From IMG/VR virus record IMGVR_UViG_3300031588_000004, positions 1 to 37,394 of that record: a stretch of DNA of 37,394 nucleotides. One strand, 5' to 3'. Each line of letters starts with the position of its first letter. Position 1 is the first letter of the stretch. Below the pieces are notes generated by a model. That model saw nothing but the letters and a program-made list of their open reading frames with translations. It searched no databases and had not been told where the DNA came from. This document shows positions 4,179-37,394 of the stretch, piece by piece. Origin of the DNA: a virus. Its lineage: Duplodnaviria > Caudoviricetes. A program made the translations under genes and the position numbers.

Positions 4179-6587
4179 ATGACAATCACCAGCACACAAA
4201 ACCGGGTGAGCTATGCGGGCAACGGAGCCCCTGGCGTACCGGGCACCTTGGCCTTTTCGGTGCCGTTCAGGTTCCTCGCCATCAGCGACCTCGTGGTGCT
4301 AGTCCGCGTGGATGCCACGGGAGTGGACACCACCAAGACCTTGGACACGCACTACTCGGTATCGGGTGAGGGTGCAGCCACGGGTGGCACGGTGACGTTT
4401 CTGATTGAGGATGGGGAGCCTCAGACCGGCGAGACTCTAATCATCTACGGCAACCCTGCGATGACGCAGTTGGTGGACTACATCGCTGGCGGCACGTTTC
4501 CCGCAGAGTCTCACGAGGAGGCGCTGGATCGTCTGACGCTGCAAAGCACTCGGACCCGCGAGATTGCAGAGCGTGCGCTGCCGTTGACTGACTCGTCCAC
4601 GGATGGGTCGGGGCAGTATGACGCCAACAGCAACCGCATAAGCAACCTGGGCACGCCTACGGCCACCACGGATGCAGCGACGAAGACGTACACAGATACG
4701 CTTGTGAATAACACTGCGCTGGGTCCGGCACCTACGGGGCTGATTGCTACGGGGTCGGTGACCTCGAGGTTGTTGGCTGACCGATGGGGTGAGATCAAGA
4801 ACGTCAAGGACTTTGGTGCGACTGGTGACGGCGTAACCGATGACACCGTAGCCATACAGGCGGCAGTGGACGCCGTGACCACTGCGGGTGGTGGGGTCTT
4901 CTTTCCTGATGGGCAGTATGGGCTCAGTTCTCAGATTACTATCGAGTCCACCAAGCCCGTAAACTTGTTCGGCTCTGGGTTTGGGGCTGCGAACGGTTCC
5001 GACACCTCTATGGCTGGCTATGGCCCACACATCTACCCCATGAACTCCTTCGCCGGCTTTGCAGCCGATGCCCGGAGCCTCATCAGATACCAAGGTGGTA
5101 CAGGTTACGGGGCCGCAGGTATCATCAACGGACTCACCTTTGCTGATACGTCTAACGGTGCAAGCGCGACGAATGACAAGCGTGGGCACCTTATTGACGC
5201 CGCTCTTTTCCTAGAAGACTTCAGTTTTGGTCAGGTACAGAACTGCTACTTTCGCCACCTCAACGGCTCGTGCATCGAAGCTCAGAACATGACAATGGGC
5301 AACATCGAGAATTGTTACTTCTTGTATAGCGGGCGAACGGGACACCCGGCGATCTACTTAAACGGTACGGTGTACGGCGTCCCACAGAGTCTTAGTTTCG
5401 AGAACTGCAAGGTGGAGGTTTGTTTCGACGAGCCATACCTGAAAATTTCCAACGGCGGTTCCGTTAAGGTTCTCGCCTCCGGCTTTGAGTCACACTCAAC
5501 CCCAACTGGTGGAGCGGGTGTGCTGGCTGCAACCGGACAAACCTTCATCGCATTCACAGACGGAGGGGGCAACAACCATATTTCAGACTGCCACTTTAAC
5601 AGGACTACAGGCACAGCGGTTACCATTGCTGCTGCCACTGCTCCCAATCTAATCAGGAACAGCCATTGGTCTACGACTGAGGGTATGTGTATTGAAACGG
5701 ATGCCTCATCACAGTTTCAGGGTATTCAAGGCTGCCACTTCTATAGTGGTGGATCTGATGACTATGCCGTCAAGCTAGGCGGGACTGGTTGCAGCATAAG
5801 TGACAGCCAGTTCCGGTCTACAACCGGGGTCAAGCTCTCCGGTGTGGGTTGTCGGGCTACGGGCAACGTGTTTGAACTTGCCCGAACTACAGACACAGGT
5901 GCAGCAGAGGGCATTATCTACGTCACCGGGGCGAGGTCGGAGGTCAGTAATAATGCCCTATCGTGGCAAAACACTGGCGGTACAGCCGATATAACAGCAA
6001 TACACATGGCAACATACGGGCCGGTCAGTGGTAACACCTTCTACAACAAAGCCACCGGGCTTGCTTCAATGACTTGCATCGACATTGCTTCCGGGGGTTG
6101 CTCGGTTACTAATAACTACTTCTGGCCCGGCGCTCTCGCAGAGATCAACTTCAATGGGCAAGAGTACCGAACGTATTCGTGGGGCAACAACGTGCTTGGA
6201 TACAACGCAGCCTCAGACGGTGGTTACACCACCATGCTGCCCGTGTTGCGTGCCAGTGCGCCGACCCTAGCCGCCGAGGTTTGGAACAATGGCGGCAAGC
6301 TCCAGATAGGTCCGGGCATCACTGCCCTCGCAAACAACGCGACCCCACCCGTTGCAGGGGGCTCGACCTTCACCACAGGCGGGACTACCACCATTACCGA
6401 CTTCGATGACGGCACTGTGGGCCAGACCATCACAGTGCTCTCAGAGCACGCGGTCACGATCACAGACGCAACGAACATCATCCTCAACGGCTCGGCCAAC
6501 TTCGTAATGGCTGCCGCTGATTCACTGACGCTTGTGCTCAAAGCCGACAACAAGTGGTATGAGACTGCGAGGATGGTGAACCTCTAG
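4179..6587 (+). CDS. Tailspike/tail fibre 2, paralog of tailspike 1 with a different beta-helix (802 aa)
   Basis: Same anchor (TQLVDYIAGGTFPAEsHEEALDRLT), VKDFGATGDGVTDDT, and a near-identical C-terminus KWYETARMVN. RBS AGGAG upstream. Confidence 0.9.
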   Translation: MTITSTQNRVSYAGNGAPGVPGTLAFSVPFRFLAISDLVVLVRVDATGVDTTKTLDTHYSVSGEGAATGGTVTFLIEDGEPQTGETLIIYGNPAMTQLVDYIAGGTFPAESHEEALDRLTLQSTRTREIAERALPLTDSSTDGSGQYDANSNRISNLGTPTATTDAATKTYTDTLVNNTALGPAPTGLIATGSVTSRLLADRWGEIKNVKDFGATGDGVTDDTVAIQAAVDAVTTAGGGVFFPDGQYGLSSQITIESTKPVNLFGSGFGAANGSDTSMAGYGPHIYPMNSFAGFAADARSLIRYQGGTGYGAAGIINGLTFADTSNGASATNDKRGHLIDAALFLEDFSFGQVQNCYFRHLNGSCIEAQNMTMGNIENCYFLYSGRTGHPAIYLNGTVYGVPQSLSFENCKVEVCFDEPYLKISNGGSVKVLASGFESHSTPTGGAGVLAATGQTFIAFTDGGGNNHISDCHFNRTTGTAVTIAAATAPNLIRNSHWSTTEGMCIETDASSQFQGIQGCHFYSGGSDDYAVKLGGTGCSISDSQFRSTTGVKLSGVGCRATGNVFELARTTDTGAAEGIIYVTGARSEVSNNALSWQNTGGTADITAIHMATYGPVSGNTFYNKATGLASMTCIDIASGGCSVTNNYFWPGALAEINFNGQEYRTYSWGNNVLGYNAASDGGYTTMLPVLRASAPTLAAEVWNNGGKLQIGPGITALANNATPPVAGGSTFTTGGTTTITDFDDGTVGQTITVLSEHAVTITDATNIILNGSANFVMAAADSLTLVLKADNKWYETARMVNL

Positions 6588-7845: not shown

Positions 7846-8155
7846 TCCACTCGACGAGTGGTGGCAGTACATCGTTGCCGGGGTGAGCACTGCGAGTCTG
7901 GCAGTGGCGAGTCATTTGCGGGTGAGGGACCGGGTGAAGACTTTGGAGATCCGCCAGGATGTCATCGAGGATAGGGCGCACCAGCTCGAGGAGACCCACG
8001 ATGCGGTAATCCGGCTGGATGGCAGGATGAACACTCTCGAGACAGACCTGCGGAACAGCGGCGAGGCATTTGCGGCGACGATGAAGGAGACAGGTGAATC
8101 TCAGGCCCGTGTTGAGACTGCGCTGGAGCGCCTGGGAGAGCTTATCAAGCCATGA
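7832..8155 (+). CDS. Membrane-anchored coiled-coil protein (holin/antiholin-like, 107 aa)
   Basis: Start reassigned to the ATG at 7832 after GGGGGA. A hydrophobic stretch WWQYIVAGVSTASLAVA is followed by a coiled coil, directly before the endolysin. Confidence 0.6.
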   Translation: MSQHDPLDEWWQYIVAGVSTASLAVASHLRVRDRVKTLEIRQDVIEDRAHQLEETHDAVIRLDGRMNTLETDLRNSGEAFAATMKETGESQARVETALERLGELIKP

Positions 8156-8484
8156 GGCAGCCACTGACACCCAGCGAGTTTGATGCCGCCTGTAGGCGAC
8201 TGGTGAGGCTTGAGCCCTATCTATCGGAGACTTCGGGGCATAGGACGGTGGCGCGGAACAGAGCGGCTAACGGATCTGACGTGAGCAAGCATCTGCTCGG
8301 CATGGCTCGAGACTTTGCGGTGGATGAGGGGCGCGGACTTTACGCAGCGGAAACGACTGCGGAGGAGTTGGGGCTGTGGGCTGTGGTGCATGACGCAGGC
8401 AGCGGCAGTCATTTACACGTACAAGGACTGGCACCGGGGAATCCACCACGGTGGTGGTCACATAAATTCAACGAAGGAGAATGA
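8152..8484 (+). CDS. Endolysin, peptidase M15 family (110 aa)
   Basis: SGHRT..RN, SKHLLGMARD (H-x6-D zinc ligands) and HLHV motifs. Confidence 0.85.
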   Translation: MRQPLTPSEFDAACRRLVRLEPYLSETSGHRTVARNRAANGSDVSKHLLGMARDFAVDEGRGLYAAETTAEELGLWAVVHDAGSGSHLHVQGLAPGNPPRWWSHKFNEGE

Positions 8485-9806: not shown

Positions 9807-10214
9807 CTAGCGACTGAGCCCATCAATCATTCGCCACGGGGCACCAGGCTCTCGTCCGCTGATGGAGATGAGCGTGTACCCTATCCGGTCGGTAAGGATC
9901 TTGATCTCTGTAGAGTGACGTTGCCGGTTGTCGAGTGCCATCTTGCCCAGCACACAGATCAAATGCCCCCCACCCGTTTCGGTGAGACAAAGCAGGAGGC
10001 GGGGTGTATGCCCTTTTTCTCGCAGCAGGGCTCTACATGCGATGGCAAAGTCGTCGCAGTCCCCCGTCACTCGTTCAAAGTCTTCGGGAAGTCTCCAGTC
10101 GTCGATTGATCCTGGGTGTTGGACGCTGTCTTTGACGTATCTGAATCCTGCAAGGACTTTCTTGTGAACCTCGACGGTGTCGTCGATATAGCTTTGTGGG
10201 CTAGCAGTCGGCAT
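9807..10214 (-). CDS. Transglutaminase-like cysteine protease (BTLCP/peptidase C93, LapG-like), catalytic domain only (135 aa)
   Basis: Cys-His-Asp triad motifs GDCDDFA, GHLICV and LDN, with upstream YVKD...DDW. Confidence 0.85.
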   Translation of the reverse strand: MPTASPQSYIDDTVEVHKKVLAGFRYVKDSVQHPGSIDDWRLPEDFERVTGDCDDFAIACRALLREKGHTPRLLLCLTETGGGHLICVLGKMALDNRQRHSTEIKILTDRIGYTLISISGREPGAPWRMIDGLSR

Positions 10215-10629: not shown

Positions 10630-10973
10630 CCCCTCCTCCATATCAGTGAGCGGTAAACCACCCTGATTGCCATGTGCGCCTGTTTCGACTTGCGCGACTC
10701 ACCCGCCTCCTCCATCCAGCCGCACTTCTTTGCGTGCTTCATGACCGCGCCGAAGGCTCGTGGGGAAGCGGGACGTTCGAGACCTGCATCCCACACATCG
10801 TCGCAGAACAGTTTCCCGTGCTTGAGCAGGTAGCTGTGAACGAACCCCTTCGCGTACTCGACCCACTCCTCGCCACTCCGACCAGTCGATTGCCGTAGGC
10901 CCTCCTGCTGACCCTTGAGTGCTTCGGCAGGAGTAGGCATGTCGAACAGTCCCGGCTGTTTAATGTCGCTCAT
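10626..10973 (-). CDS. Hypothetical protein, possibly winged-helix (115 aa)
   Basis: Translationally coupled on both sides. Contains the pattern PRAFGAVMKHAKKCGWM. Confidence 0.7.
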   Translation of the reverse strand: MSDIKQPGLFDMPTPAEALKGQQEGLRQSTGRSGEEWVEYAKGFVHSYLLKHGKLFCDDVWDAGLERPASPRAFGAVMKHAKKCGWMEEAGESRKSKQAHMAIRVVYRSLIWRRG

Positions 10974-11464
10974 TTGACGTGCAACTTTTGCCGCTGCACC
11001 ATCTCAGCCCCGGGCACAGGTTCATTCTTGAGGGCTTGCCGCAGCTTGATTTTGTCAGGCCGAGGAGCGGGTGTGACGGGCTCGGTCATGAACTCCGCAG
11101 GGAGCTTGCTCTCGTCCGTGATCTCGACGGCACTCGATTTAGTCCACTTCAACCAATGCCTGTCATCCCTAACCGACTGGCCTTGTGGCAGATGCCGCTC
11201 CACATACGCCTGGAGCTTCTCTGCGCGCCTCTTATGGCCTTTAGCTCGCTCGGCCAGTGCATCGGCTTGGAGCTGCACAGCGTCACCCTCGGCACGCTCA
11301 CCCTTGATGTAGCCAGCAAGCGATAGGATCTTCAGCTCTCGATCAAGCTCGAGGGCGTCGATTTCAAACAGTGCCAGCTCATCAATCTCGCCGGTATCGC
11401 GATCCGTGGCCGCGTAGATCATTGCTTCGAGACGTTCGTCCATCTGCCAAAGTTTCAAACTCAT
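10970..11464 (-). CDS. Siphovirus Gp157-like protein (164 aa)
   Basis: MSLKLW start after GGAG, a coiled coil, and the C-terminal pattern S.AVEI.DE..LP.EF...PDK..L..ALK...VPGA. Confidence 0.85.
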   Translation of the reverse strand: MSLKLWQMDERLEAMIYAATDRDTGEIDELALFEIDALELDRELKILSLAGYIKGERAEGDAVQLQADALAERAKGHKRRAEKLQAYVERHLPQGQSVRDDRHWLKWTKSSAVEITDESKLPAEFMTEPVTPAPRPDKIKLRQALKNEPVPGAEMVQRQKLHVK

Positions 11465-11479
11465 GTGGATCTCCAGGGT

Positions 11480-11519
11480 GAGCCTGGGCATCACCGTGTT
11501 CTTGGTGACACCCAGACTC
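11480..11519 (-). other. Intergenic RNA hairpin (16-bp stem, 8-nt loop)
   Basis: Minus strand GAGUCUGGGUGUCACC-aagaacac-GGUGAUGCCCAGGCUC is fully paired with 3 G-U pairs and has no U-tail. Confidence 0.7.
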
Positions 11520-11535
11520 GTTGGGAGGTTCGGTT

Positions 11536-11916
11536 TTAGAACGGCGAGCCATCGTCGGAGGGGATGTTCTCATCCATCGCTGGAGCCACGATGCGGACCC
11601 GCAGGCAATCGACAATGTTGCCGCCAAACGAGGTCTTGTCGGGGTAAATCTGCACCGGCTTGCCGATCCAGTTGTCCGTGTCGTCGCCGTAGTACGCACC
11701 GATCATCTTGGAGTTCGTCACGTTCAGAACCCAACCCTTGGTGCCGTTTTTGAACTTGAACGGAGAGTCGGTGAAGTAAACGCAGGGCCTACTATCGGCA
11801 TCTGCGCCCTGGCCGACCTCCTCCATGACAACCTTCTCAATCGTTAGATTGATCGGCTTGCTTTCAAGATCTGCTGCTTTCATGTAGGCGGAGGGGAATG
11901 CTGTCTGGATATTCAT
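11536..11916 (-). CDS. Putative single-stranded DNA-binding protein (126 aa)
   Basis: Start MNIQTAFPS after GAGGA. Beta-rich body (LNVTN..., DNWIGKPVQI) and an acidic tail ending DDGSPF, as in SSBs. Confidence 0.6.
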   Translation of the reverse strand: MNIQTAFPSAYMKAADLESKPINLTIEKVVMEEVGQGADADSRPCVYFTDSPFKFKNGTKGWVLNVTNSKMIGAYYGDDTDNWIGKPVQIYPDKTSFGGNIVDCLRVRIVAPAMDENIPSDDGSPF

Positions 11917-11945
11917 TGTGTGTTCCTCGTGTTGTGGTGTGGGTC

Positions 11946-11992
11946 GAGTGGGTTGCCCCGCCATCGTTTTACTGATGACGAGGCACCTACTC
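11946..11992 (-). other. Intergenic RNA hairpin (~18 pairs, 8-nt loop)
   Basis: Minus strand GAGUAGGUGCCUCGUCAUC-aguaaaac-GAUGGCGGGGCAACCCACUC, with G-U pairs, one bulge, one mismatch and no U-tail. Confidence 0.7.
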
Positions 11993-12205
11993 ACTCTCGG
12001 CGAGAACATCCCGCCCGTATCCATCGACACCAATCGACGCCGATGAATTGTTCACATGGGTTTCCATGCTGAAAATGGTGATGACTGCTGCCGCGACGAT
12101 GACCGCAAGCACTACGAGTTTGCGTAGGCGGCGTGGCTTACGGTTGTGCGTGGTTGGCAATGCGAAGTCGAACTCGAGTGGCTTGCGACCGTAGAGATGT
12201 CTCAT
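11987..12205 (-). CDS. Small single-TM protein (72 aa)
   Basis: Basic patch RKPRRLRK followed by LVVLAVIVAAAVITIF. ATGA-coupled to the upstream gene. Confidence 0.65.
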   Translation of the reverse strand: MRHLYGRKPLEFDFALPTTHNRKPRRLRKLVVLAVIVAAAVITIFSMETHVNNSSASIGVDGYGRDVLAESE

Positions 12206-13202: not shown

Positions 13203-13991
13203 ATGGCGAGACCGAAGCCACATTTCAAGATCCACCTATCTATTGATAGCCATAAGAACACTGCGGTGATGTGGGGGAATGTCATCGACCGTGGAATTTA
13301 TTGCGAGTTGGGCAGGCTGTCGGTGCAGAAATATGCCTCGAAAACCGGGAATCAATTCCACATGAGTACGGCCGAATTGATGGTGGTGACCGGCTGCGAA
13401 ACGGCTGGAGCTGCAGCGTTGAGATGGAAAGCTTTCCTGAGGCACTGCACACTTGGAGCAAAGGCACTCGGGGGTTACCCGCCTATTACCTCAGAGGCAC
13501 TCGGTAGGCACTGGAGAGTTACGATCCGCAACCTCTCGGAAAAGCAGGGGTTTGTATCCGGTAATAAACAAGAATGTACTCCTACAGAACACAGAGCACA
13601 GAATGAAGAACAAATAGCATTAACTACCCCCTCGACATACAAGTGGCAGAGGCCCGAGAGCGCGCCATTGCTTCCTGTCGAGACCGTCAAGAATATGGTC
13701 GCCGTCAAGCCCAATGGGGTAACCCACACAGCCGAAAATGTTCAAGTCTGGTGGCAGTGGGTAGTGCCGCAAATGCTGGATCGTGGGACCGAGGTTGAGA
13801 ATCTCGGCAGGGCTCGACCGAATTGGTGGAAGCGTCTACGAGCCGATGACATGGCAACTGCTCGTGCGTGGATTTCAAAATCTATCGTGTACGAGCAAGC
13901 CGCAGAGTTTGACGAGGCCGCAGAGGGCGACTCATCAAAACCACAATTCACCGATGACGAAATTCAGGAGGCAGCCAATGCCCTTTCATGA
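13203..13991 (+). CDS. Putative replication initiator/replisome organiser (262 aa)
   Basis: Lies between Cro and the helicase, and carries internal A-rich heptamer repeats. The function is inferred from position. Confidence 0.55.
   Translation: MARPKPHFKIHLSIDSHKNTAVMWGNVIDRGIYCELGRLSVQKYASKTGNQFHMSTAELMVVTGCETAGAAALRWKAFLRHCTLGAKALGGYPPITSEALGRHWRVTIRNLSEKQGFVSGNKQECTPTEHRAQNEEQIALTTPSTYKWQRPESAPLLPVETVKNMVAVKPNGVTHTAENVQVWWQWVVPQMLDRGTEVENLGRARPNWWKRLRADDMATARAWISKSIVYEQAAEFDEAAEGDSSKPQFTDDEIQEAANALS
13584..13618 (+). repeat. Five degenerate 7-bp tandem repeats, candidate origin element
   Basis: ACAGAAC ACAGAGC ACAGAAT GAAGAAC AAATAGC within an AT-rich patch. Confidence 0.5.
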
Positions 13992-14991
13992 AAACGGCAA
14001 AGCCAGGGGCTACCTGGAGATGCTGAACGACATTCCACTCGCGGATCGGCCTGAATTTGCCAGCACGATTCCAGACATGAAGGCATTCGAGGATGGTTTG
14101 TTGGAAGCTGGCTGCCCACTCAACGAGATCGACCAACTCATCACCGAACTCGAGTTCTATCGCAGTCCAAACAGCAAGGTCGATGATCCAGCCGTCGAGC
14201 TTATGAGGGTCTTGAGCGAGTCAATTCGGATACCAGACGAGAACAGCGCCATAGATCTGCTTGAGAGCACCCTAGAATCGCGTAAGCCGCGTTTTAAGAC
14301 GGGGTTGGCATCTTTGGACCAGATGACAGGCGGAGGCTGCTACGGGCTAACCACGGTCGCTGGAGACGCGAAGGCAGGAAAGACACTTTTCGCATTCTCA
14401 ACTGCGGTCGAGGCAGCGTTATCTCCAGAGGCGTGGAAGGTTGTTTATTTCAACGCGGAACTAGATCGCAACGAAGCCATTATGGCGGTCATTCGTAAAT
14501 GTGAGGGTAAAATCCCGCCCGAACTGGGTGAGAGGATGACGTTGATTACCCCCGACTACACCTTCCAGCCCAGAGATGCGATCAGCCGGATTCGGGAAGC
14601 AATCGAGTTGGGAGATGAGAAGGTTCTGGTTGTGCTCGACTCGATCAATGCGTTGATTGATTTATCGAGTGACGGGAGTGGCGACGAAGTCATCGACTAC
14701 TGGTCTGCGGCTGCGTTGTGGCGGAACTTTGCCGTGCGGGCGACGAAGAACTCAGGCGGCAAGATTGCATTCCTAGCCGTTTCGGAGACCAACCGTGCTG
14801 GTGGAATCAAAGGTGCGGCCCTCGAGTATAAAAGCGACCTTTGCGTAAAAATATGCAAGGATGACCAGAACCCGACACTGGTTGATATTGACGTTATGTT
14901 GTCACGATCTACGCCGTCAGGTCCGTTGGGTACATTCTATCGAGACTGGCTGAACTGTAAATTCAAGCAATGCGACAACACTTTTAAGTAG
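13978..14991 (+). CDS. DnaB-like/RecA-fold replicative helicase (337 aa)
   Basis: TGLASLDQMTGG, Walker A GDAKAGKT, YFNAE, Walker B VVLDS and LEYKSD. Start at the ATG at 13978 after AGGAGG. Confidence 0.85.
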   Translation: MPFHENGKARGYLEMLNDIPLADRPEFASTIPDMKAFEDGLLEAGCPLNEIDQLITELEFYRSPNSKVDDPAVELMRVLSESIRIPDENSAIDLLESTLESRKPRFKTGLASLDQMTGGGCYGLTTVAGDAKAGKTLFAFSTAVEAALSPEAWKVVYFNAELDRNEAIMAVIRKCEGKIPPELGERMTLITPDYTFQPRDAISRIREAIELGDEKVLVVLDSINALIDLSSDGSGDEVIDYWSAAALWRNFAVRATKNSGGKIAFLAVSETNRAGGIKGAALEYKSDLCVKICKDDQNPTLVDIDVMLSRSTPSGPLGTFYRDWLNCKFKQCDNTFK

Positions 14992-15182: not shown

Positions 15183-15520
15183 CAACTGGAACGAGATGCT
15201 TTTCGATGAGGACCGAAGACGAGCTGCCGGGGACAAGCGGACACTTTTGGAACCAAGACCTCGAATGCCAAAATGGAAATTGCAGCAGCAATTGGTCTAA
15301 AAACCGAGATCGTCCAAGAGTCTGCAACTTCGCCAGTTACCGGCCTGCACCCCATATGACGGGTCAACTCAAACGAGACCTCGAGCTACATTCCCGACAC
15401 GGGGATTCAGATGACTCGTTCACCAAGGTTGCGGCCGAGATGGGGATGAACCGGCACGAAGCCTATGCCGCCTACCAGCGAGCCCGCCGCTATCACAAAA
15501 CAATGGCGGCGCGGAGATGA
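15179..15520 (+). CDS. Cys/His-containing protein with a C-terminal HTH (113 aa)
   Basis: Contains C7, H22, C30, C35 and C49. SFTKVAAEMGMNRHEAYAAYQRA resembles a sigma region-4-type HTH. Confidence 0.55.
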   Translation: MTTGTRCFSMRTEDELPGTSGHFWNQDLECQNGNCSSNWSKNRDRPRVCNFASYRPAPHMTGQLKRDLELHSRHGDSDDSFTKVAAEMGMNRHEAYAAYQRARRYHKTMAARR

Positions 15521-16035
15521 AGCGCCGAATCATCGCCATCGACCCCGGTACAGACCGCAGCGCGGTGGTGACAATCGACATCGACGGCGAAGTCCACGGC
15601 CAGATCCTCGACAACTACGTGCTTGAGAAATGGCTGGAGGATTTCCACCACAAGAAAGATTGGTGCTGCGCAGTCGAGATGATTGCCTGCTACGGGCAGC
15701 GAGTAGGCCGGGAAGTATTCGAGACCTGCGTCTGGATCGGTAAATTCATGTCCGCATGGCAAACTCGCACGATAGCCGAACCCGCAAGACTCGTCCGACG
15801 AGATGTGAAGATGGAGCTGTGCTCGACCAATCGCGCCAACGATGCAGATATTCGCGCTGCATTGATCGACCTCTACGGACCCGGCAAGCTCAAGGCTGTC
15901 GGATTGAAAGCCTCTCCCGGCCCACTCTACGGCTTCAAAAAAGACATGTGGGCTGCGTTAGCGGTAGCCGTGACATTCGACAGGATGCTCGACCGCACCG
16001 CAATCCATGTCAAAAAGCTGGGGGGAATAGGATGA
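15517..16035 (+). CDS. RuvC-like Holliday junction resolvase (172 aa)
   Basis: IIAIDPG, AVE and D.WAALAVA RNase H-fold motifs. Confidence 0.8.
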   Translation: MKRRIIAIDPGTDRSAVVTIDIDGEVHGQILDNYVLEKWLEDFHHKKDWCCAVEMIACYGQRVGREVFETCVWIGKFMSAWQTRTIAEPARLVRRDVKMELCSTNRANDADIRAALIDLYGPGKLKAVGLKASPGPLYGFKKDMWAALAVAVTFDRMLDRTAIHVKKLGGIG

Positions 16036-27859: not shown

Positions 27860-29394
27860 TGAAACTCCCCCAGGTACTGGCAGACCCGGCATCTTCTGGG
27901 CGTAGGGCTGCACCTCGAGACTTCGGGGGTGGCGAGGGCATGGCTGCAATGGGCCAAGCCGTTAGCGGTCTAGGTGACATCGCGGGCAAACTCTTTGAGG
28001 AGGAGATGAGCGCGCAGGTGTCTGGGTCATTGGGCGAGGCGACTCGTTCGTTGAATGATTTGAGCATGGAGGTGCAGGCTAACCCGGATCACAACACCCG
28101 GAACAAGATGTACGCAGACGGTGCGTCGAAGATTGCGAGTCAGTTCCGCAAGGGTCTGCATTATCCCCGCTTTCAGGGAATGTTTGACGAGCGGCTAGAG
28201 GGGACGCTCGAGCGTGGGCGTACAGGCATTGCCCAAGGTGTGCGTAAGGCATCGTTAGATTCAGCCAAGGCTGGGCGTATGACCTTCATCGAGTCCCAGC
28301 TAGATGCCCTCGAGAACATTAGCGACCCCACGGAGCGGTTGCAGACGATGAACGGCATCCGCGAGGAATTAGCTTCGGGTGTGCGCGGTGGGTTGTGGAG
28401 TGCGGCACAAGCCGCAGCCATGCAGATCAAGTTTGAAGACCGGATAGCTGGGCACGAACTCATCACAGAGTCTCAGGCGGCAGCGGATGAGATTATGGAC
28501 ACCTACCCAACGGCAGAGCAGCGGCTGGACGCTGCACTCGAAATTCAAGCCGGTCCACTCCGCGATGCAGTAGTGAGCCGTGTCGAGTCCCGGCAAAGTG
28601 CAGAGGACGGTCTTTATGCGAAGGCTGCGAAGGCCCAGCACACGGCTCTGCTGCACCGTGCCTATTCCGACTTGACTCAGGAGCAACTGCTTGAGGAGTC
28701 GATTTCGCTCAGTGCAAAGGGGACACCGCTCGATCCCGCTGTGCTGAAGTCGGTTGCCTCTGTAATCGCGCATCGGGTTAGCAGTGAGGGTGGCCTCCCC
28801 GATCAGGGTCCACTCAATCCCCATACCAACTACTCGAAACTCTTGGATATGGCTCGCGATCCGGTGACACGCCAAGAGTTCCTCGGCCTTGATCTGTCGA
28901 AGTACGCGGGTGGGTTACTGCCGGCGCAATATGACAAGCTGGTAGCGAATCAGGGGAATGGTGCTTGGGGATTAACGTCCGACACGACTAAACGTGTGGA
29001 CCGCGCACTGGCGAAGCTGAGCCTACCAGTCACCAGCGCGGACATAGCTGCTGAAGGCAATGCCACGAAGGTGGCATCCGCAGAGCAGTTCCGTGCGGTT
29101 GTAGAGAATGCAGTGATGCAAGAGGAGCACCGGACTGGGAACCCTCTATCTGGCAAGGCAACGCAGGACATCATCAACGCCCTCTCTGATGAGGTGGTGA
29201 TTGATGTAGATATGGCTTGGGATGATACGGTGCCGATTTACCAGATTTCCCCCGAAACCGAAATTGGTGATGTTCCTCACTCATTTGCTGCGAAAGCACG
29301 CGAGCGCGCCATTCCCAAAGTCTTGACCGATGAGGATGTTCGTAAGAAGTATCTCGACATGCTGCTGATTAGGCAGGCAGGCGGGACGCAATGA
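27859..29394 (+). CDS. Internal virion/ejection protein, medium (gp15-like, 511 aa)
   Basis: Helical, with an MKLP start and G.A..GLG N-terminus. Lies between the small and giant ejection genes. Confidence 0.75.
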   Translation: MKLPQVLADPASSGRRAAPRDFGGGEGMAAMGQAVSGLGDIAGKLFEEEMSAQVSGSLGEATRSLNDLSMEVQANPDHNTRNKMYADGASKIASQFRKGLHYPRFQGMFDERLEGTLERGRTGIAQGVRKASLDSAKAGRMTFIESQLDALENISDPTERLQTMNGIREELASGVRGGLWSAAQAAAMQIKFEDRIAGHELITESQAAADEIMDTYPTAEQRLDAALEIQAGPLRDAVVSRVESRQSAEDGLYAKAAKAQHTALLHRAYSDLTQEQLLEESISLSAKGTPLDPAVLKSVASVIAHRVSSEGGLPDQGPLNPHTNYSKLLDMARDPVTRQEFLGLDLSKYAGGLLPAQYDKLVANQGNGAWGLTSDTTKRVDRALAKLSLPVTSADIAAEGNATKVASAEQFRAVVENAVMQEEHRTGNPLSGKATQDIINALSDEVVIDVDMAWDDTVPIYQISPETEIGDVPHSFAAKARERAIPKVLTDEDVRKKYLDMLLIRQAGGTQ

Positions 29395-32300
29395 CCCAGC
29401 CCTTCTTCACAGATGAAGAGTGGGAAGCGGCTGACGAGCGTGATCGCAAACGCCAGGAGCTGCTAGTCGAAGCCGAGAAGGCACAGGTGCGGAACATCGC
29501 AGACGTGCGTGCCCGCGAGCAGGCCCCACAGCGCGCTGAAGTCCTTGGAATCGAGAAGCGCACCAATGTGCCCTTTGACACGGTTGAGCGCAACCTGGAC
29601 GAAATGCGGGCTCGTGACGCATGGCAGCAGCTAGGGCCGCAGAGTGTTGAGTACAGCCCAGCATGGCGCAAGTTGCTGAATAGCAAGATCGCTCCGCTTG
29701 TGATGCAGAACCCAGCGAGCACCCGCGCTATTTCCGACGCGATTGATTTCAGGACAGTAGGCAGCCCGCAGCAGGGTGCTCTTGGTGCGGGTATCGACCA
29801 AGGCAACTGGATGACTGAGGTGGCTAAGCTCGGCTGGCGGGTGAAGTTTGGATTAGGTTCAGACGCAGACAACGTGAATTTCAACCAGATGCGTCTGAAC
29901 CCGCCCGAGGTGCCTGATGCGCCGGGTTATCTGGATGACGTTGGTGTGATGGTTGCATCCCAGGTTCCGGTGCAGGCTTCCATCCTCGCTTATGGCACAA
30001 CGGCAGCCGCCGGAGGTGCTGCGCTTGGTGGGATGTCTGGCGGCTTGCCTGGGGCTGGTGCTGGTGGTGCGTCTATGTTCGTGGTGGGCACGGCATTCGC
30101 CAGTTACCACCTAGAGGGCGGGCTCGCCTATGCGGATATGCGGGGAGAGGCTGAGCGTGTTCTCAGCGAGTCTGGCGAGGTAATCCCACACGGGGCAATC
30201 GTTGGAGCCTCTGAGCTTGTGGGTGTATTGAACGGTGCGCTCGAGTTTCTTTCCTTTGGCGTGATGACTCGCAATCCGTTTGTGGCTGGACTGAAGCGAA
30301 AACTGTCGGCTAAGGCAGGGCTGGACATCATCAAGTCGAAGACCTTGCGTCCGTACTTGATCGCATTTGGCAAGCGGATGGCGGTGTCGGCAGGAACCGA
30401 GGCCAGCACAGAGTTCGCCCAGGAACAGGTTCTGATGGCCGTTAATCAGGCCCTCATTGCGTCTACGACAAGCCTGTCGGCACAGGTGCCAGAAGATTGG
30501 TCCGAGAGGTCACTCAAGTCATTCCTGTCAGGTTTTATTGTTGGGCCAGCGATGACCACCGCAGTAGCCCCCTACCACGCAGCGGTCATGCGCGTTGGAA
30601 TGAACAAGCAAACCCTGGCCCATGCCAAGCGACTTGATGCCATCACGGCGGCGCGTCTTAAGGACGGGGGGCTTGCCGACGCGGACCCGCAGGCAGTGCG
30701 CGAGTGGATACAGGGACAGATTGAAGAGGGTGGCGGTGATCCTAACCTGTACCTGCCTGCCGACAATATCGCGGAGTTGTTTCAGGAGGACGAGACACTT
30801 GCGGAGTCATTGCCCGAGGTAGCGGAGCAGTTGGCCGAGGCTCAGGTAGCAGGCACCGACGTAGTGATTCCCATTTCAGACTATGCGACCTATTTGGCTG
30901 CCTATCACGAAAAACTCAAGGGGGTGGTGCGTCATGGTTTGGGAGAGCGCAACACGTCAGAGGCCGAATCTAATTCTGCTGAAGACGAGGCAAACCTCCG
31001 CACTGAGCTAGAAGCCCTCGCCGGCACGGAAGAGGGTGCAGTAGAGCCGACTCCCGGCGAGCGGGTAGAGCAGAGCATGGTTGAGAAGTTGATCCGCACA
31101 GCTTCGGCGAGTCCCGAGACTGCTGCGCGTCTTGCGGATCTGCTAAGGCAGCACGCGGAGCGTCGAGCTTCAGACCCGGCAGTCGGAGAGCGTGCCTTTG
31201 AGGAGGCTGACATTGGCATAGAGGGACCGCTGGGTGCTCAGGCAGGGCCGGGTGTTGCTGCTGAGTTGGGCCAACCCGTAAACCTCGATTCGATGCTTAA
31301 CGAGTTGCGCGGCACAGCCCCCGAAGCCGCCGCAGAGGGTGCGGTTGAGGGTAGGTTGGCCGGGACGAAAGTGGTAGATGAGTCGGGGAATCCAGAAACC
31401 GTTTACCACGGAACGTCTTCCGCAAGGGATGCTCTTGAGCTTGAGGATCGGCGTGGGATAGGGGGGATCTTTTTCACGCGCAACCGCGCAGAGGCACAGC
31501 GTAGGGCTGAGTTTGTTGCCAATAGAGACGGCGGTGAACCCCGTGTATTGGAGGCGAAGGTAGGCATAAAGAACCCGTCGCCGCCTGGGTCCGGGTTGAG
31601 AAAAGAAAGAGTGGGACAAGAAGGGGAGACACTAGAGAGTTACGACGGGTATATATCGGATTCAGAAATTGCGGTGTTCGATAGGTCGCAGATTTTTGAA
31701 GTAGATCCCGCCCCCACCCCCCCCGCCGCCGCCACTCCTGAGTCTGCCGAACTTGCTGCGATGCTGGAGCAGTTGGGTTTCGACCTGGAGCAGATGACGA
31801 ACGAGGAAGTAATCGAGGCACTGGGGGATCGGTTTGCAGATGCCGGCACCACCCTGTTCCAGCCCGTCGAGCTTGATAACGAACGCCCACTAGCAGGTGC
31901 GTTTCACTCTGCGCTTGGCCGTGTACTTCGCGAGTCACCACAGCGCAAGATGACAGTGCCCCAACTCCGCAAGATGCTCCAGAAGAAGACAGTCAAGAAG
32001 GACGAGGTTGTTTGGTCTGGTGTAGAGGAGTACCTGGCTGCGCTAGATCCCGAGGCCAAGGTTGACCTCGACGAGATGATGGAGGTTATCAAGCTCATCA
32101 AAGTCGAGGAGGTGGTGCTGGGTGAACGGGGCGACAACACGAATGAGCTGCGCGAGTTGTGGATCGAGGAGGAGGTTCAGGGTCACAGCGCGATCATCAC
32201 GGAGGACGGTAGTTTTGAGGTTCGCGACAGCGACGGCTTTGTTGAAGCCGCCAACTTTGCAACCGAGGATGAGGCGCTCGAATCCGCTCGGGAAAATGTG

Positions 32301-35300
32301 GAAGCGGCTGCGCAGGAGATGGACGCGCAGGACTTTACGTCTGCCCTGTTTGAGATGGGCGTTGACATCCATAGCGAGTTCATGTCGGACGGTGCGACTC
32401 AGCACGAAACCTACGTCCTAGACGGCGGCACGGAATATCGCGAGACGCTGATAACGATGCCCGCAGATTGGCGGCAAGCAGGTGGACCGCCGGAAAGCGT
32501 GCTGCTGCGACAAGAGATTAATGCTCTAGAGAAACGACTAACAGATACAACGACTGAACTAACATTTTTACCATCCGACACGCTTAGTGTGGTCAATCCC
32601 GAGCGCGCAAGAATGCAGAAGGAGCTTCAGACTATAGCCGTTGAGTACAACGAGCTGAACGCGCAACTAGATGCGATCCCGAGGGAGCAAAAACTTGCGG
32701 AGCGGGAGCAGTGGAATCGTGAGACCGAAACCTTCACAGGCGGCCACTACGGCTCTACCGCCCCCAACGTCCTAGTCCACGTCCGCCACAATGACCGCAT
32801 TGGCCCTAACGGCGAGAAAGTCCTGTTTATCGAAGAGATTCAGGATGACTGGGCGAAGGCAGGGCGGAAGGAAGGGTACGGAGGACTCTCCACAGCAGAG
32901 AGTGAAGAACTAGCGAGTCTTCAGCAACAGTATCAAGCGGTGCCTTCCCCAGATAGGCACACTCGCGTCGATTACATTCCAATAGTTGAGCGCATCAAGG
33001 AACTGCAAGCGAAGGGGGGAGGCGTCCCCAACCGCCCGTTCAAGTCCACCGGCCACGAACTAGCCCTGAAGCGCATGATCGCCTTGGCAATCAACGAGGG
33101 TTACGACTCGGTAGCCTGGACGCCTGGTCACGTACAAGTAGAACGTTACGAAACCGAGCTACGGCAGACCGTGGACAGCATCAGGTGGGAGGTGCTCCCG
33201 TCTGACGGAGAGCAAACTGCTGCGGTAGTTGAAGACGTAGACGCTTGGATTGTCAGCGACCCCAATGGGGAGCGCGTTCTAAGCACTAGCAACGAAGACA
33301 GGGCGACCGCGCTGGCCGACAATATAGGCGGCACGGTTGTTAGGGAACAGGAAACGGTCACACCCGCCCAGGCTCCGGGTGAGATTGCCGTTTCCACCTA
33401 CAAGGACGGCAACGTCGCGGTGGGTATGCAAGTGGACCCGCAGAGCGGTCTAGTGAAGGGGAGCACCGCAGGCGATGGCATCCCCGTAGACACGCCGCTC
33501 GAGGATGTAGTAGGCAAGGACATTGCCAAGCAGATTCTTGAAGGTGGTCCCAGCGGCACGGTCGAGGGTGACAACCTGACGATTGGCGGCAAGGGCTTCA
33601 CCGACATCTACGACACGAAGCTCGTCAAGGCTGCGAACAAGCTGGGCAAGAAATATGGCGCGAAGGTGGAGATGGGCGAAGTTGAATCAGACGCTCTTAT
33701 AGGTCAAGCTCGACGAGCGCAAAGGTTCAACAGGGGTGAAGAGCTAGAAGTGACCCAAGTGGACGAAGGCGAGTGGACTATACTGAACTTAGGTGTACCG
33801 ACTGCGACGTACCCAGATAGGATGACAGCGGAAGCGCAGCGACAGAGGCTTATTGATGAAGTGCAAGTCATTGATGCGTCAACTGTCTCAGTCCACACCC
33901 TCAACCTCACCCCCGAGATGAAGTCGGCAGTGCAGGAGGAGGGTCTGCCTCTCTTCCAGCCTGCATTCCACGGCACGCCGCATCGCTTTGACAAGTTCAC
34001 GCTTGACCACATCGGCGAAGGCGAAGGTGCCCAGGCGTTCGGGTGGGGTTTGTACTTCGCTTCAAGGCGCGGGGTTGCGGAGTATTACAAAGAGTCTCTC
34101 ACGAAGAACGCTCGAACCTATGCAGTCGATGGCGTAGAACTCGATGATCCGACCAGACCTGGCGGCGGGATGGTCGAAAGTCTGGACCGTGCTGCTGAGT
34201 CCCCCGAATCGCTGGAGACGCGCATTGACTTTCTCAAGCGCCGTCTCGCACTTATATCGAGAAACGATTCGCGCTCTAGGCTTATTGGGCGAGAGCAGCG
34301 CGTTCTGGCGTTCGCTGAGTCCCTGCGCGGGAAGACTGTCACGATTACCAGCGAGTCCGGCCAACTATTCGAGGCCGACATCCCCGAGAGCGGCGAGTTG
34401 CTCGATTACGATCTGCCGCTGAGTGAGCAGCCGGAGGGGGTGAGACTGAAGTTGGAGCCGATCATGCGTGAGCGGTTCGGCGATGCGTGGGAAGATCACA
34501 TGCAGAGGACAGGTCAGAATTTTTACTACAATGTCGCCCTCCCGGTGGCGTGGAATAAATTCGCCCCATCCACCCAGGACGATATGAGCGAAACAAGCGA
34601 CCGTGATGCTGCGAAAATGGCATCTCAGTTACTGCTCGAGGCCGGAATCCCAGGACTCCAATACACCGAGGGCCAACTCTCGGGTGGTGGTGGCACTGCA
34701 AAGAACTTTGTCATCTGGGACGAGGAAGCCATCAACGTCCTGAACACCTTCTTCCAGCCTGCTGACAAAGGTATCCGGGGCTCACTCAGCTACAACAACG
34801 AACTCACCAACGTCATCATGCGGTTTACCAAGAGCAAGAACCTGAGCACGGGTCTACACGAGTCTGCTCACCTCTTCTTTGCCATGATGCTGAAGGACGC
34901 ACAGACGGAGGGCATTGCTCCGCAGTTGCAGACGGACATGCAGACAGCCCTCGACTTCCTTGGCATGGACTCAGTGGAGTCGCTGCTTCAAGACAGTCAG
35001 GGCAATCTAAGCGACGAAGCAAGAGCCGCTCACGAGAAGTGGGCTCGGGCTTTTGAGATGTATCTGCGAGAAGGCAAGGCACCCAGCGCGGCACTGCGCG
35101 AATCGTTTTCGCGGTTCAAGTCTTGGCTGCTCCACCTCTACAAGACGCTGCGCGGTTTGGACGTAGAACTAAACCCGGAGATGCGGCAAGTCTTCGACCG
35201 TTTGCTTGCCAGTGACGAGCAGATTGCCCAAGCCAAGCAGCAGGACCGTATGCTGCCTGCATTTGAGAGTGCCGAAGCAGGCGAGATGACCCCGGCACAG

Positions 35301-37394
35301 TTTGCGGCGTATCAGCAGTCTTACGAGCGCATGGATGTCAAGGCGCAAGAGGAACTCGGCAAGAAGGTCATGCGGGAGTTTGACCGTGAGTTGACTGCGG
35401 AGTGGAAGGAAAACTGGGAGAAGATGCAGGCCGAGGTGGAGGCAGAAATCAATGCCGATCCCATCGTCCAACTCAGGCACTGGCTCCAGATGAAGACACT
35501 GCTCAACGAAGAGACACCCGAGGAGATGGAGCACATCCGCCTGGACCTCGACACGATCAAAGAGAAGTACGGCGGCAAGAGCACCGTCAAGGCACTGGGC
35601 GGCACAGGTTCGTACTCGATGGTTCAGAAGGATGGCATGGACCCGGAGCTGCTTGCACCTCAATTGGGATTTGAGAGCGGGCAGGAGGTGGTAGACGCGC
35701 TGGTTGCGACAACCAACCGAAAGCTGTCAATCAAGATCGAAACCGACAAGCGGATGAAGGAAACCTACGGTGACATTCTAAACGATGGCACGATGTCCGA
35801 ACTCGCGATTGACGCCCTCGAGAGTGATGCCAAGGGGGATTTCCTCATCCGCCAGCAGCGCATTCTGGGGCACCGGGCAGGCATCGCAAACAACCTGCCG
35901 CAAGCGATTGCTCGAGACGTTGCTCGTGAAGTGGTGCAGGGCAAGCAGATCCGATCTTTGCGGCCTGATCTGTACCGTAACGCCGAGGCCAGGGCTGTTG
36001 CTGAACTCTTGGGTGCGGTGGAATCCGGTGACTGGCAGGCAGCCCATGAGGCTGGGCGTAAGCAACTGCTGAACCACTTCTTGGCTGTGGCTGCGGTGAA
36101 GGCCAAGGAGCAGACCACCAAGTGGCACGGGTACACGAAGACATTCGACAAGAAGGCCAAGCGGGAGCGTCTTGCGCGTGCTGGAGAGGACTATCTCGAT
36201 CAGGTTGATTCTCTGCTGGAACGGTTTGACCTGCGGCAGATGAGCAACAAGAAGGCCGACTTGGCGCTGGCTGATTGGGTAAACGCACGGCTTGATGCGG
36301 CCAAAGAACGGAACGATGAACTCGGCGGCGTACTCATTGCAGAGCCCGCGTTTGTCATCAATGAGCAGATGCTAGACCGGGATTTCAGGCAGCACTGGCG
36401 CACGATGACCGTTTCCGAGATGGGTGGCCTGGTCGATGCGGTCAAGAACATCGAGCACCTTGCCATGACAGAACTCAAGCTATTGCTGGAACGCGACAAG
36501 TTGGATTTCGAGACTCGCGTAGAGCAGTCCCTTGAAACCATCAATGCCAACCAGCGCACAGACAGGCCGATTTCGATTGAAACCGGGAACCAACTAAAAG
36601 AGCAGCTCCGCCTTTCGGTGGGTGCGTACTTTGCGAGTCATCGGAAGCTGGCGAGTCTTTTGTCCGAGATGGATGGCGGCTATGGGGGTGTACTCTTTGA
36701 CATGATTATCCGGCCAATGGACGAGGCTGGGAACAGAGAGAACTCGATGCGGATCGAGGCGGGTCAGCGTCTGGGTGAAATCTTCGCACCGTACATGGGT
36801 GACTTGACGCAGAAGTTCAAGCGCACTGCGGAAACTGCGACCTTTGGCCTTGTCGATGCAGTCACCCCCGACATTACGAAGCAAGAGAAGGTTCCCGGCA
36901 CGGGTTCCAATGTGATGCCAATGTCCAAGATTGCACGCCTCATGGCTGTGCTGAACATGGGCAACGCGGGGAACCTCCAGAGACTGACTGACGGTTACGG
37001 GTGGAGCCAGTCCGATGCTCTGGCAATTCTCGACACTCTTACCAAGGAGGACATGGATTTCGTCCAGGGTGTTTGGGATTACATCGAGGAATACTGGGGC
37101 GACGTGTCAGACCTACAGCGCAGGATTGCAGGCGTGGCTCCGAAGAAGATCAAGCGGCAAGCCATCGAGACGCGGCACGGGACTTATGCCGGTGGATACT
37201 TCCCGGTCAAGTACGACAGCTCGCAAACCCCCCAGGCGTGGCAGGATTCCGTTGCCGATGCTGCCCAAAACATGATGTCCACGGTGCGCGGCAAGGCGAA
37301 GACACAAGACTCATTTACGAAGCAGCGCGTGCGGAAGGTGGTAGACCGGCAGATCCAGCTTGACTTCGGTGTCATCTTCGGACATGTGGGTGAC
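29391..37394 (+). CDS. Giant ejection/large polyvalent protein; continues across the junction to 1886 (3,068 aa total)
   Basis: The ATG at 29391 overlaps the previous TGA. Hand translation found no in-frame stop, and the ORF track lists no closed ORF in this frame. Domains: Gly/Ala hydrophobic N-terminus, LPD22-like (~30750-30940), ART-like (31365-31694), EEIQxDW GNAT-like (31902-33950), ART-like (33963-34748) and HESAH peptidase (34770-35230). Confidence 0.92.
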   Translation, partial: MTQPFFTDEEWEAADERDRKRQELLVEAEKAQVRNIADVRAREQAPQRAEVLGIEKRTNVPFDTVERNLDEMRARDAWQQLGPQSVEYSPAWRKLLNSKIAPLVMQNPASTRAISDAIDFRTVGSPQQGALGAGIDQGNWMTEVAKLGWRVKFGLGSDADNVNFNQMRLNPPEVPDAPGYLDDVGVMVASQVPVQASILAYGTTAAAGGAALGGMSGGLPGAGAGGASMFVVGTAFASYHLEGGLAYADMRGEAERVLSESGEVIPHGAIVGASELVGVLNGALEFLSFGVMTRNPFVAGLKRKLSAKAGLDIIKSKTLRPYLIAFGKRMAVSAGTEASTEFAQEQVLMAVNQALIASTTSLSAQVPEDWSERSLKSFLSGFIVGPAMTTAVAPYHAAVMRVGMNKQTLAHAKRLDAITAARLKDGGLADADPQAVREWIQGQIEEGGGDPNLYLPADNIAELFQEDETLAESLPEVAEQLAEAQVAGTDVVIPISDYATYLAAYHEKLKGVVRHGLGERNTSEAESNSAEDEANLRTELEALAGTEEGAVEPTPGERVEQSMVEKLIRTASASPETAARLADLLRQHAERRASDPAVGERAFEEADIGIEGPLGAQAGPGVAAELGQPVNLDSMLNELRGTAPEAAAEGAVEGRLAGTKVVDESGNPETVYHGTSSARDALELEDRRGIGGIFFTRNRAEAQRRAEFVANRDGGEPRVLEAKVGIKNPSPPGSGLRKERVGQEGETLESYDGYISDSEIAVFDRSQIFEVDPAPTPPAAATPESAELAAMLEQLGFDLEQMTNEEVIEALGDRFADAGTTLFQPVELDNERPLAGAFHSALGRVLRESPQRKMTVPQLRKMLQKKTVKKDEVVWSGVEEYLAALDPEAKVDLDEMMEVIKLIKVEEVVLGERGDNTNELRELWIEEEVQGHSAIITEDGSFEVRDSDGFVEAANFATEDEALESARENVEAAAQEMDAQDFTSALFEMGVDIHSEFMSDGATQHETYVLDGGTEYRETLITMPADWRQAGGPPESVLLRQEINALEKRLTDTTTELTFLPSDTLSVVNPERARMQKELQTIAVEYNELNAQLDAIPREQKLAEREQWNRETETFTGGHYGSTAPNVLVHVRHNDRIGPNGEKVLFIEEIQDDWAKAGRKEGYGGLSTAESEELASLQQQYQAVPSPDRHTRVDYIPIVERIKELQAKGGGVPNRPFKSTGHELALKRMIALAINEGYDSVAWTPGHVQVERYETELRQTVDSIRWEVLPSDGEQTAAVVEDVDAWIVSDPNGERVLSTSNEDRATALADNIGGTVVREQETVTPAQAPGEIAVSTYKDGNVAVGMQVDPQSGLVKGSTAGDGIPVDTPLEDVVGKDIAKQILEGGPSGTVEGDNLTIGGKGFTDIYDTKLVKAANKLGKKYGAKVEMGEVESDALIGQARRAQRFNRGEELEVTQVDEGEWTILNLGVPTATYPDRMTAEAQRQRLIDEVQVIDASTVSVHTLNLTPEMKSAVQEEGLPLFQPAFHGTPHRFDKFTLDHIGEGEGAQAFGWGLYFASRRGVAEYYKESLTKNARTYAVDGVELDDPTRPGGGMVESLDRAAESPESLETRIDFLKRRLALISRNDSRSRLIGREQRVLAFAESLRGKTVTITSESGQLFEADIPESGELLDYDLPLSEQPEGVRLKLEPIMRERFGDAWEDHMQRTGQNFYYNVALPVAWNKFAPSTQDDMSETSDRDAAKMASQLLLEAGIPGLQYTEGQLSGGGGTAKNFVIWDEEAINVLNTFFQPADKGIRGSLSYNNELTNVIMRFTKSKNLSTGLHESAHLFFAMMLKDAQTEGIAPQLQTDMQTALDFLGMDSVESLLQDSQGNLSDEARAAHEKWARAFEMYLREGKAPSAALRESFSRFKSWLLHLYKTLRGLDVELNPEMRQVFDRLLASDEQIAQAKQQDRMLPAFESAEAGEMTPAQFAAYQQSYERMDVKAQEELGKKVMREFDRELTAEWKENWEKMQAEVEAEINADPIVQLRHWLQMKTLLNEETPEEMEHIRLDLDTIKEKYGGKSTVKALGGTGSYSMVQKDGMDPELLAPQLGFESGQEVVDALVATTNRKLSIKIETDKRMKETYGDILNDGTMSELAIDALESDAKGDFLIRQQRILGHRAGIANNLPQAIARDVAREVVQGKQIRSLRPDLYRNAEARAVAELLGAVESGDWQAAHEAGRKQLLNHFLAVAAVKAKEQTTKWHGYTKTFDKKAKRERLARAGEDYLDQVDSLLERFDLRQMSNKKADLALADWVNARLDAAKERNDELGGVLIAEPAFVINEQMLDRDFRQHWRTMTVSEMGGLVDAVKNIEHLAMTELKLLLERDKLDFETRVEQSLETINANQRTDRPISIETGNQLKEQLRLSVGAYFASHRKLASLLSEMDGGYGGVLFDMIIRPMDEAGNRENSMRIEAGQRLGEIFAPYMGDLTQKFKRTAETATFGLVDAVTPDITKQEKVPGTGSNVMPMSKIARLMAVLNMGNAGNLQRLTDGYGWSQSDALAILDTLTKEDMDFVQGVWDYIEEYWGDVSDLQRRIAGVAPKKIKRQAIETRHGTYAGGYFPVKYDSSQTPQAWQDSVADAAQNMMSTVRGKAKTQDSFTKQRVRKVVDRQIQLDFGVIFGHVGD
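33952..34762 (+). repeat. 13-bp direct repeat TCTTCCAGCCTGC at 33952-33964 and 34750-34762
   Basis: Exact copies 798 bp (266 codons) apart, bracketing the second ART-like domain. Confidence 0.85.
36712..37394. repeat. Terminal direct repeat, right copy (683 bp)
   Basis: Matches 1-683 except for A at 36780. Confidence 0.98.

Follow-up and report, generated by a model that had tools for sequence, protein, structure and literature searches.

A hydrophobic-x-Q peptide tag bounds exchangeable modules of a large phage polyvalent protein and is a candidate cut site of its HExxH peptidase

Polyvalent proteins were described by Iyer et al. (2017; PMC5512222) as large proteins from the virion-gene region that combine disparate domains with an HExxH peptidase, and the autoproteolytic release of domains by this peptidase was proposed in the same work, with an analogy being drawn to polyproteins. 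The main text of that paper does not contain the term 'linker', and the parts considered here name no cut site, repeated junction tag or crossover mechanism; the alignments supplied by FTP may show the motif treated below. The present analysis deals with such a protein encoded by a tailed phage (IMG/VR record IMGVR_UViG_3300031588_000004, positions 1 to 37,394; this whole stretch of 37,394 nucleotides is called the window). It shares the HExxH peptidase and ART-PolyVal domains with the polyvalent proteins, its relatives additionally contain PBECR5, LPD22 and methylase domains, and its cargo modules each end in a short tag of the form hydrophobic-x-Q. We propose, at a probability of roughly 0.63, that this tag terminates swappable modules of a protein that is likely injected, that crossovers take place within its codons, and that it is likely the cut site of the HExxH peptidase. 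Polyvalent proteins and their autoproteolysis were already proposed in 2017; the candidate cut-site tag and the tag-bounded swaps are the new part. Within the literature covered, from which most subscription journals were absent, no paper was found that names a repeated junction tag or a cut site in these proteins.

Several other described systems resemble this locus in part. In the IVP-D group, represented by BPP-1 Bbp10 and epsilon15 gp17, the gene likewise follows those for the tubular tail and small internal virion proteins (IVPs), but in the pertinent section of PMC4819975, where Table 2 gives Bbp10 as an IVP-D ejection protein, the group is described solely in terms of ejection. Bbp10 itself has F-D-Q and F-Y-Q on the two flanks of one insert. 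Polymorphic toxins, as characterized in the relevant part of PMC3482391, also join a constant body to recombining variable effector cassettes that a peptidase is thought to release; however, they carry one C-terminal toxin derived from stand-alone cassettes, often accompanied by immunity genes, whereas here the cargo is internal and in tandem between two constant cores, and the C-terminus is conserved. Phage mosaicism at boundary sequences has been explained either by recombination focused on brief conserved stretches bordering the modules or by random joins with subsequent selection (PMC3233612, in its treatment of the two models). Unlike in those cases, the boundary considered here lies within one reading frame, the constraint appears to act at the protein level and the DNA repeat is not kept family-wide, and the present case would seem to stand between the two models. 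For a crAss-like phage, a polyprotein was reported as 'likely cleaved', with a zincin in gp65 (10.1101/2020.03.07.982082, in part). The available portion of a 2026 cryo-electron microscopy preprint on a Xanthomonas podophage (10.64898/2026.02.16.706137) gives no structural match for a 2300-amino-acid (aa) protein, a putative counterpart of the one studied here.

The gene in question is a large polyvalent internal-virion gene of the IVP-D/Bbp10-like type (29391..37394, plus strand), as assigned by PHROG 9880, Bbp10 homology and synteny. The window represents a phage genome of ~36.7 kb that is circular or else permuted, as indicated by a terminal overlap of 683 bp (1-683 / 36712-37394; one mismatch, 69/36780). 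Via this overlap, the open reading frame (ORF), which leaves the window at its end, resumes at ~684-1886, resulting in a full-length protein of 3068 aa that is present as a whole in the protein database (P0002). The gene order is podovirus-like, featuring terminase, portal, scaffold, capsid, tail-tube and internal-virion genes upstream of the large gene and tail fibres downstream of it. Pfam detected ART-PolyVal twice in addition to the HExxH domain, and the gene resides among virion genes of a terminase-portal phage; judged by this domain content and setting, the protein belongs to the polyvalent proteins as these are understood in PMC5512222. Its HExxH region matched 49 phage records, including BPP-1 Bbp10 (44% identity over 143 aa in the peptidase region) and Caulobacter phage Jess A, the gene position being shared. 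Because of this synteny and the Bbp10 homology, the protein is likely packaged and injected into the host together with the phage DNA.

A preliminary description of this DNA had reported FQP peptides at 31854 (LFQP), 33951 (LFQP) and 34749 (FFQP), and all of its coordinates were found again. The peptides lie at aa 822, 1521 and 1787 of the ORF, TTCCAGCC is present at each of them, sites 2 and 3 have exactly 13 bp in common (33952-33964 and 34750-34762) at a spacing of 798 bp, and sites 1 and 2, 2097 bp apart, share only 8 bp. The proposed position of the three sites at domain junctions held for the cargo modules and the peptidase. Following the N-terminal core (29391..31853), which is conserved in close relatives and contains LPD22 in many homologs, tag 1 (31854..31865) marks the end of this core and the start of the cargo array, as also supported by homolog junctions. 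The EEIQxDW module (31863..33959; 699 aa, no Pfam family) ends in tag 2 (33951..33964, including copy 1 of the repeat), which recurs in relatives, and is followed by the ART-like 2 module (33960..34757; 266 aa), for which a partial ART-PolyVal match below the cut-off was obtained and which is present or absent among relatives. Tag 3 (34749..34762, including copy 2 of the repeat), predicted as a beta-strand adjoining the RG strand of the peptidase, leads into the zincin-like metallopeptidase domain (34761..35261; HESAH at 34857-34871, invariant E at 35034-35036 and 35055-35057). Comparison with relatives then defines the C-terminal conserved core (35262..37394, continuing at the window start); all these features are encoded on the plus strand. 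The junction rule did not extend to ART-like 1 (~31350-31715), which is not bounded by FQP.

Three FQP tripeptides compare with 0.17 expected (P=0.0006 for this tripeptide alone). Given the peptides, the probability of identical codons across the 13-mer is ~0.018 when only this pair is considered and ~0.05 when all three pairs are allowed. A second exact 13-mer, which is out of frame, exists in the ORF, and synonymously recoded ORFs average 0.9 exact 13-mers. Taken alone, the DNA repeat is only mildly unusual. As a standout repeat it was rejected, since exact-repeat scans of the ORF gave many chance repeats among which the 13-mer was not outstanding. Outside the gene, TTCCAGCC occurs five more times (7129, 14563, 17313, 22426 and 26045; 1.76 expected in all), possibly as a result of codon bias, and no junction is evident at any of these copies. 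The evidence that the FQP sites matter comes from the relatives rather than from statistics of the window.

In a first set of 120 homologs, 118 of which had a placeable HExxH, a hydrophobic-x-Q motif was found within 30 residues before the HExxH domain in 93/118 (control windows, 14% and 18%). Motif learning returned L/Y/F, a free position and Q at 0.94, floating 25-49 residues before the first His, the residue after the Q being variable (G, E, D, P, A, S). A second set (143 proteins) provided the pre-peptidase tag in 124/142 cases versus 22% in the control. According to searches with module profiles that had been built without the tag, each module type examined is flanked by it at either end. 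At internal junctions it was present at 26/28 ends of the N-terminal core and at 21/23 EEIQxDW, 8/9 PBECR5 and 17/17 ART-2 heads, amounting to 72/77 in total (controls 21, 17, 15 and 5%, respectively); the corresponding counts for internal junctions in the second set were 18/20, 24/31, 7/9 and 8/8. In cargo-free proteins (7/35), the tag of the N-terminal core runs directly into the peptidase. In the cultured Caulobacter phage Jess A (P0088), ART-PolyVal is flanked by L-T-Q and L-A-Q. The proteins compared are built as N-core–tag–(cargo–tag)n–peptidase–C-core, where n varies from 0 to at least 3; among their cargo modules are two ART types, EEIQxDW, PBECR5, cytosine methylase and DUF7178. Across the homologs, the motif is best described as a protein-level hydrophobic-x-Q tag ending each cargo module, family-wide, and not as FQP or TTCCAGCC as such. 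The profile of the peptidase domain retrieved 12,265 cluster representatives, and 6,965 of these had E ≤1e-30. In P0240 and P0241, the peptidase region occurs in two to three tandem copies, some of them identical, which arose either by duplication at the tag or artificially during assembly. Scans of viral contigs with short window stretches and the EEIQ head recovered the contig of the window itself, a relative that was already known and two other matches, but no further close relative.

Among 120 ART-2-bearing proteins, divided according to whether the host protein, i.e., the protein carrying the module, has this peptidase, the tag was found at 84/94 heads and 58/63 tails when the peptidase was present, compared to 4/34 heads and 6/26 tails in other host proteins (weak peptidase matches, 3/3 and 1/2). 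The 34 heads from other hosts featured F-x-R (11), F/Y-M (4), Q at the same place (10) or other residues (9), and the same modules in other hosts often end in RFS or F-x-R. As far as these alignments go, the tag tracks the host protein and not the cargo. In LPD38-type hosts (P0140, P0181, P0189, P0225 and others), many of which have HExxxH domains, the motif that closes the same ART and EEIQxDW modules is RFS(R), F-x-R or F/Y-M, and a second tag system is probably present there.

The expectation that breakpoints of domain gain and loss coincide with FQP sites was borne out in close relatives by module combinations, DNA crossover maps and alignment edges. EEIQxDW occurs without ART-2 in P0003, P0005, P0006, L085 and L088, and P0009 also lacks ART-2, so that the predicted in-frame loss of ART-like 2 has counterparts in these forms. 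PBECR5 stands alone in P0004 and precedes ART-2 in L087; another module stands alone in L083/L084 and ahead of EEIQxDW in L088; and methylase arrays are found in L090 and L114. When a tree was built from 20 rows of the peptidase core, near-identical cores with differing cargo were seen in five sister groups. At the DNA level, identity switches at the tag in L087/L088 (from 30% to 100%), L084/L088 (100% to 31%), L004/L005 (27% to 100%) and L006/L090 (57% to 100%), the switch falling within ~20 nt of the Q codon of the tag. For 12 close genes, 11/18 blastn edges without collinear resumption were located ≤20 nt from the tag Q codon in both partners, although such zones make up 2.3% of the sequence; the blastn edges are not independent events. 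Based on these comparisons, cassette exchange very probably takes place at the tag. In P0128 and P0134, near-identical ART-2 heads and tails are combined with an HExxxH-type peptidase and the FFQP tag is kept.

Read data were compared for seven of 24 listed metagenome runs (X2, X5, X6, X7, X8, X10 and X15), the best-matching runs for the window DNA being seawater metagenomes, four of which may be where this DNA came from. Contig matching started exactly at 33954 in 5/7 runs (X6, X7, X8, X10 and X15), in X15 a match started at 34752 behind a PBECR5-like tail, and unitigs began at 34752 or 34754 in X6, X7 and X8; no joints were seen in X2 and X5. P0134 fits the loose ends at 33954 and 34761 seen in several runs. 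Recombination between the sites had been predicted to leave deletion junctions of 798 and 2,097 bp. The former is hinted at by a short X10 contig, which follows 33891-33964 without mismatch and continues with 17 bases matching 34763-34779 at 15/17 positions. It appears to be the predicted join and agrees with the long ART-2-less relatives, but is only a hint, with 17 bases beyond the repeat falling under the 31-base bridging rule. A clean 2097-bp deletion was seen in none of the seven runs. A joint in X7 (31886 to 33956) was rejected as such a deletion; the intervening sequence is unknown and the short side comprises only 30 bases.

The assumption of a DNA repeat conserved beyond coding need, serving a dedicated system for adding or removing effectors, failed outside the close clade. 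Within this clade (ten genes), tags of the same gene matched at 50 of 83 synonymous codons versus 33.8 expected (z 3.85; 19 pairs, not independent), and repeats of 12-18 bp occurred in 4/10 genes versus 0.49 expected (without the window, 3/9 versus 0.40), whereas look-alikes away from junctions had no synonymous excess (156 versus 165 of 346). The sequence of the repeats varies between genes, and synonymous matches in L087 numbered 0/5. Outside the clade, synonymous positions vary freely (90 matches versus 88.7 expected of 153) and repeats of ≥12 bp were found in 0/51 genes; an earlier test on a mixed set gave 40 versus 37.6. No hairpin is common to the three sites, and their single-strand folding was no better than that of shuffles. 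Among the ORFs scanned, several small ones being without a family, none matched an integrase or site-specific recombinase; general recombination genes are present in the window genome. Conservation of a DNA site as known for att or integron-like sites was not found. Judged from these codon comparisons, the repeat is beyond chance locally, yet it is no conserved site, and the 13-bp repeat does not qualify as a fixed recombination site. The 12-18-bp repeats are likely scars, or footprints, of recent swaps and substrates for further ones.

HExxH is intact in 117/118 homologs, and H51, E52, H55, E110 and E117, i.e., the HExxH and two further E, were invariant in 131/131 sequences, corresponding to the HExxH plus downstream Glu of zincins. 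An AlphaFold2 (AF2) model based on these 131 sequences (predicted local distance difference test score, pLDDT, 84) places the tag as a strand (13-19) beside the RG strand (22-29), with three strands followed by the HExxH helix; a single-sequence model was poor (pLDDT 58) and was discarded. Matches to the lethal-factor catalytic domain, PPEP-2/3, thermolysin and ArdC begin at model residues 20-21, just past the tag, a SprT match was obtained at E 0.085, and the Pfam scan of the domain gave no MPTase match. The RG strand may thereby form the substrate-binding edge, with the tag where the substrate would lie, and the fold matches (Z ≤4.3) weakly suggest that the tag occupies the substrate position of a zincin. 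A complex prediction of peptidase, Zn and tag-1 peptide scored 0.02, its controls were not folded, and it counts as evidence neither way. Owing to the invariant catalytic set, the retention of the tag far from the domain, its association with the host protein and the modelled tag strand, we favour the view that the built-in HExxH peptidase cuts at the tag, and regard this predicted role as fairly likely. A part of the phiM1 ejectosome (PDB 8vb2_A, 986-1123) weakly matched model residues 11-168 (Z 3.7), and a degenerate domain of zincin-like type might be present in T7-like ejection proteins.

A number of observations weigh against the reading proposed here. At the level of the window, 37% of shuffles reached three copies of some equally rare tripeptide, which means that its statistics alone are no proof. 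The close-clade tags were picked on protein context after the sequences had been viewed, P0003, with a core 94% identical, reads LFSE at the junction, and ART-like 1 falls outside the tag system. In an unguided all-versus-all comparison, ends of high-scoring segment pairs lay within 5 aa of a tag in 21% versus 8% and starts in 13% versus 8% of cases; pre-peptidase junctions were near the tag in 28/35 cases, internal insertion-type junctions in only 1/14. This test is weak and noisy because modules also vary inside. As for cutting, the top fold matches are zincins but weak (best Z 4.3, none ≥5), a Foldseek search with the peptidase model returned no match, and the tag strand may be structural rather than situated in the cleft. 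Q occupies the tag position in 10/34 heads from other hosts, and the covariation of tag and peptidase may stem from common descent of the host protein and not from specificity. Finally, N4 vRNAP, ArdC and TraC1, which have such peptidase domains, are packaged or transferred uncut according to the part of PMC5512222 that deals with them.

The tag could, instead of being cut, act as a binding strand that completes the sheet of the peptidase-like domain or docks onto it, or as a handle that sets the order of packing, unfolding and ejection for each module, with the protein staying whole and the HExxH domain acting on a target in the host or envelope. Such a role would suit tag 3, which AF2 folds as a confident strand of the domain sheet, the free choice of the residue after Q, the unprocessed packaging of N4 vRNAP mentioned above (PMC5512222) and a 2026 structure paper on N4, the accessible part of which contains an RNA polymerase:C-terminal domain (RNAP:CTD) assembly and describes no cleavage; the retention of the tag at internal junctions that lie hundreds of residues away from the domain, the invariance of every catalytic residue and the change of the tag with host type speak against it, and we consider this explanation unlikely. 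Cutting by another protease, either a host enzyme or the product of another phage gene such as the C93 peptidase (9807-10214), is very unlikely, given that the tag tracks the built-in peptidase family over many hosts and habitats, even though a Peptidase_C93 ORF exists in this genome. Cysteine proteases, 3C among them, typically cut in a Gln-directed manner, which counts in favour of such an enzyme.

At the DNA level, a dedicated system of fixed repeat and recombinase might move the cassettes, the peptide motif being merely its translation. The synonymous excess and the repeats of the close clade, together with the sharp crossovers, are what such a system would leave, but the repeats vary between genes, the excess vanishes outside the clade, the middle codon is free, no hairpin is common to the three sites and no recombinase match was obtained among the scanned ORFs; its probability is slightly lower still than that of a foreign protease. 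That tripeptides and 13-mer arose by chance is scarcely credible: the statistics of the window are weak after look-elsewhere correction, yet homolog junctions and DNA breakpoints land on these exact sites.

The reading of the tag as both cut site and crossover point can be put as follows. Selection would keep the peptide tag since the peptidase must recognise every junction, and because all modules end in similar codons, a few bases of microhomology would be shared between them. General recombination, filtered by frame and tag, could then give precise swaps, and the 12-18-bp repeats of the marine clade would have been left by recent swaps and would ease the next one. The built-in zincin-like domain would cut at the tags, freeing the modules. 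We rate it as somewhat better than an even bet that thousands of podophages use a self-cutting polyprotein of this kind as a plug-in effector magazine, the tag being cut site and crossover point, and that other polyprotein families have peptidase-matched tags of their own.

If true, modules could be added, dropped or reordered within a living population by means of one three-residue tag, and the autoproteolysis idea of 2017 would now be joined by a candidate site, by individual residues as targets for mutation and by phages that are in culture. The tag also offers a simple computational rule for splitting large proteins into modules, which would expose unnamed effectors of early infection such as the 699-aa EEIQxDW module. 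It further suggests a route from a protein-level constraint to a recombination hotspot, and may show how a podophage moves a 3000-aa payload into a cell as working pieces.

Regarding the remainder of the large gene, ART-like 1 (ART-PolyVal, PF18760; 31350..31715, plus strand; 32.7 bits, cut-off 31.2) lies within the N-terminal core without FQP flanks. A second variable spot (31331-31711) coincides with it, adjoins a C-rich low-complexity run and has no bounding tags; P0004 lacks ART-like 1, and 439 other bases take its place in an X6 contig (joint 31331 to 31711). LGQP at 31266..31277 (plus strand) is a possible degenerate extra tag, its assignment being uncertain, with TLEQ/TFEQ in four relatives and absence in L085 and P0005.

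Elsewhere in the window, the gene for the C93 transglutaminase-like cysteine peptidase (9807-10214, minus strand) is located near an M15 peptidase gene (8152-8484). The regions 10970-12033 (minus strand), 13783-14991 and 15517-16035 encode Gam/Gp157-like, PHROG 21613 neighbour (no name), DnaB/UvsX-like ATPase and Holliday junction resolvase functions, and these general recombination genes could drive module swaps. Finally, the tail-fibre/tailspike paralogs at 1891-4152 and 4179-6587 share exact repeats of 32, 24, 18, 18, 17, 17 and 16 bp, which sit in their N- and C-terminal parts and may represent another module-swap site.

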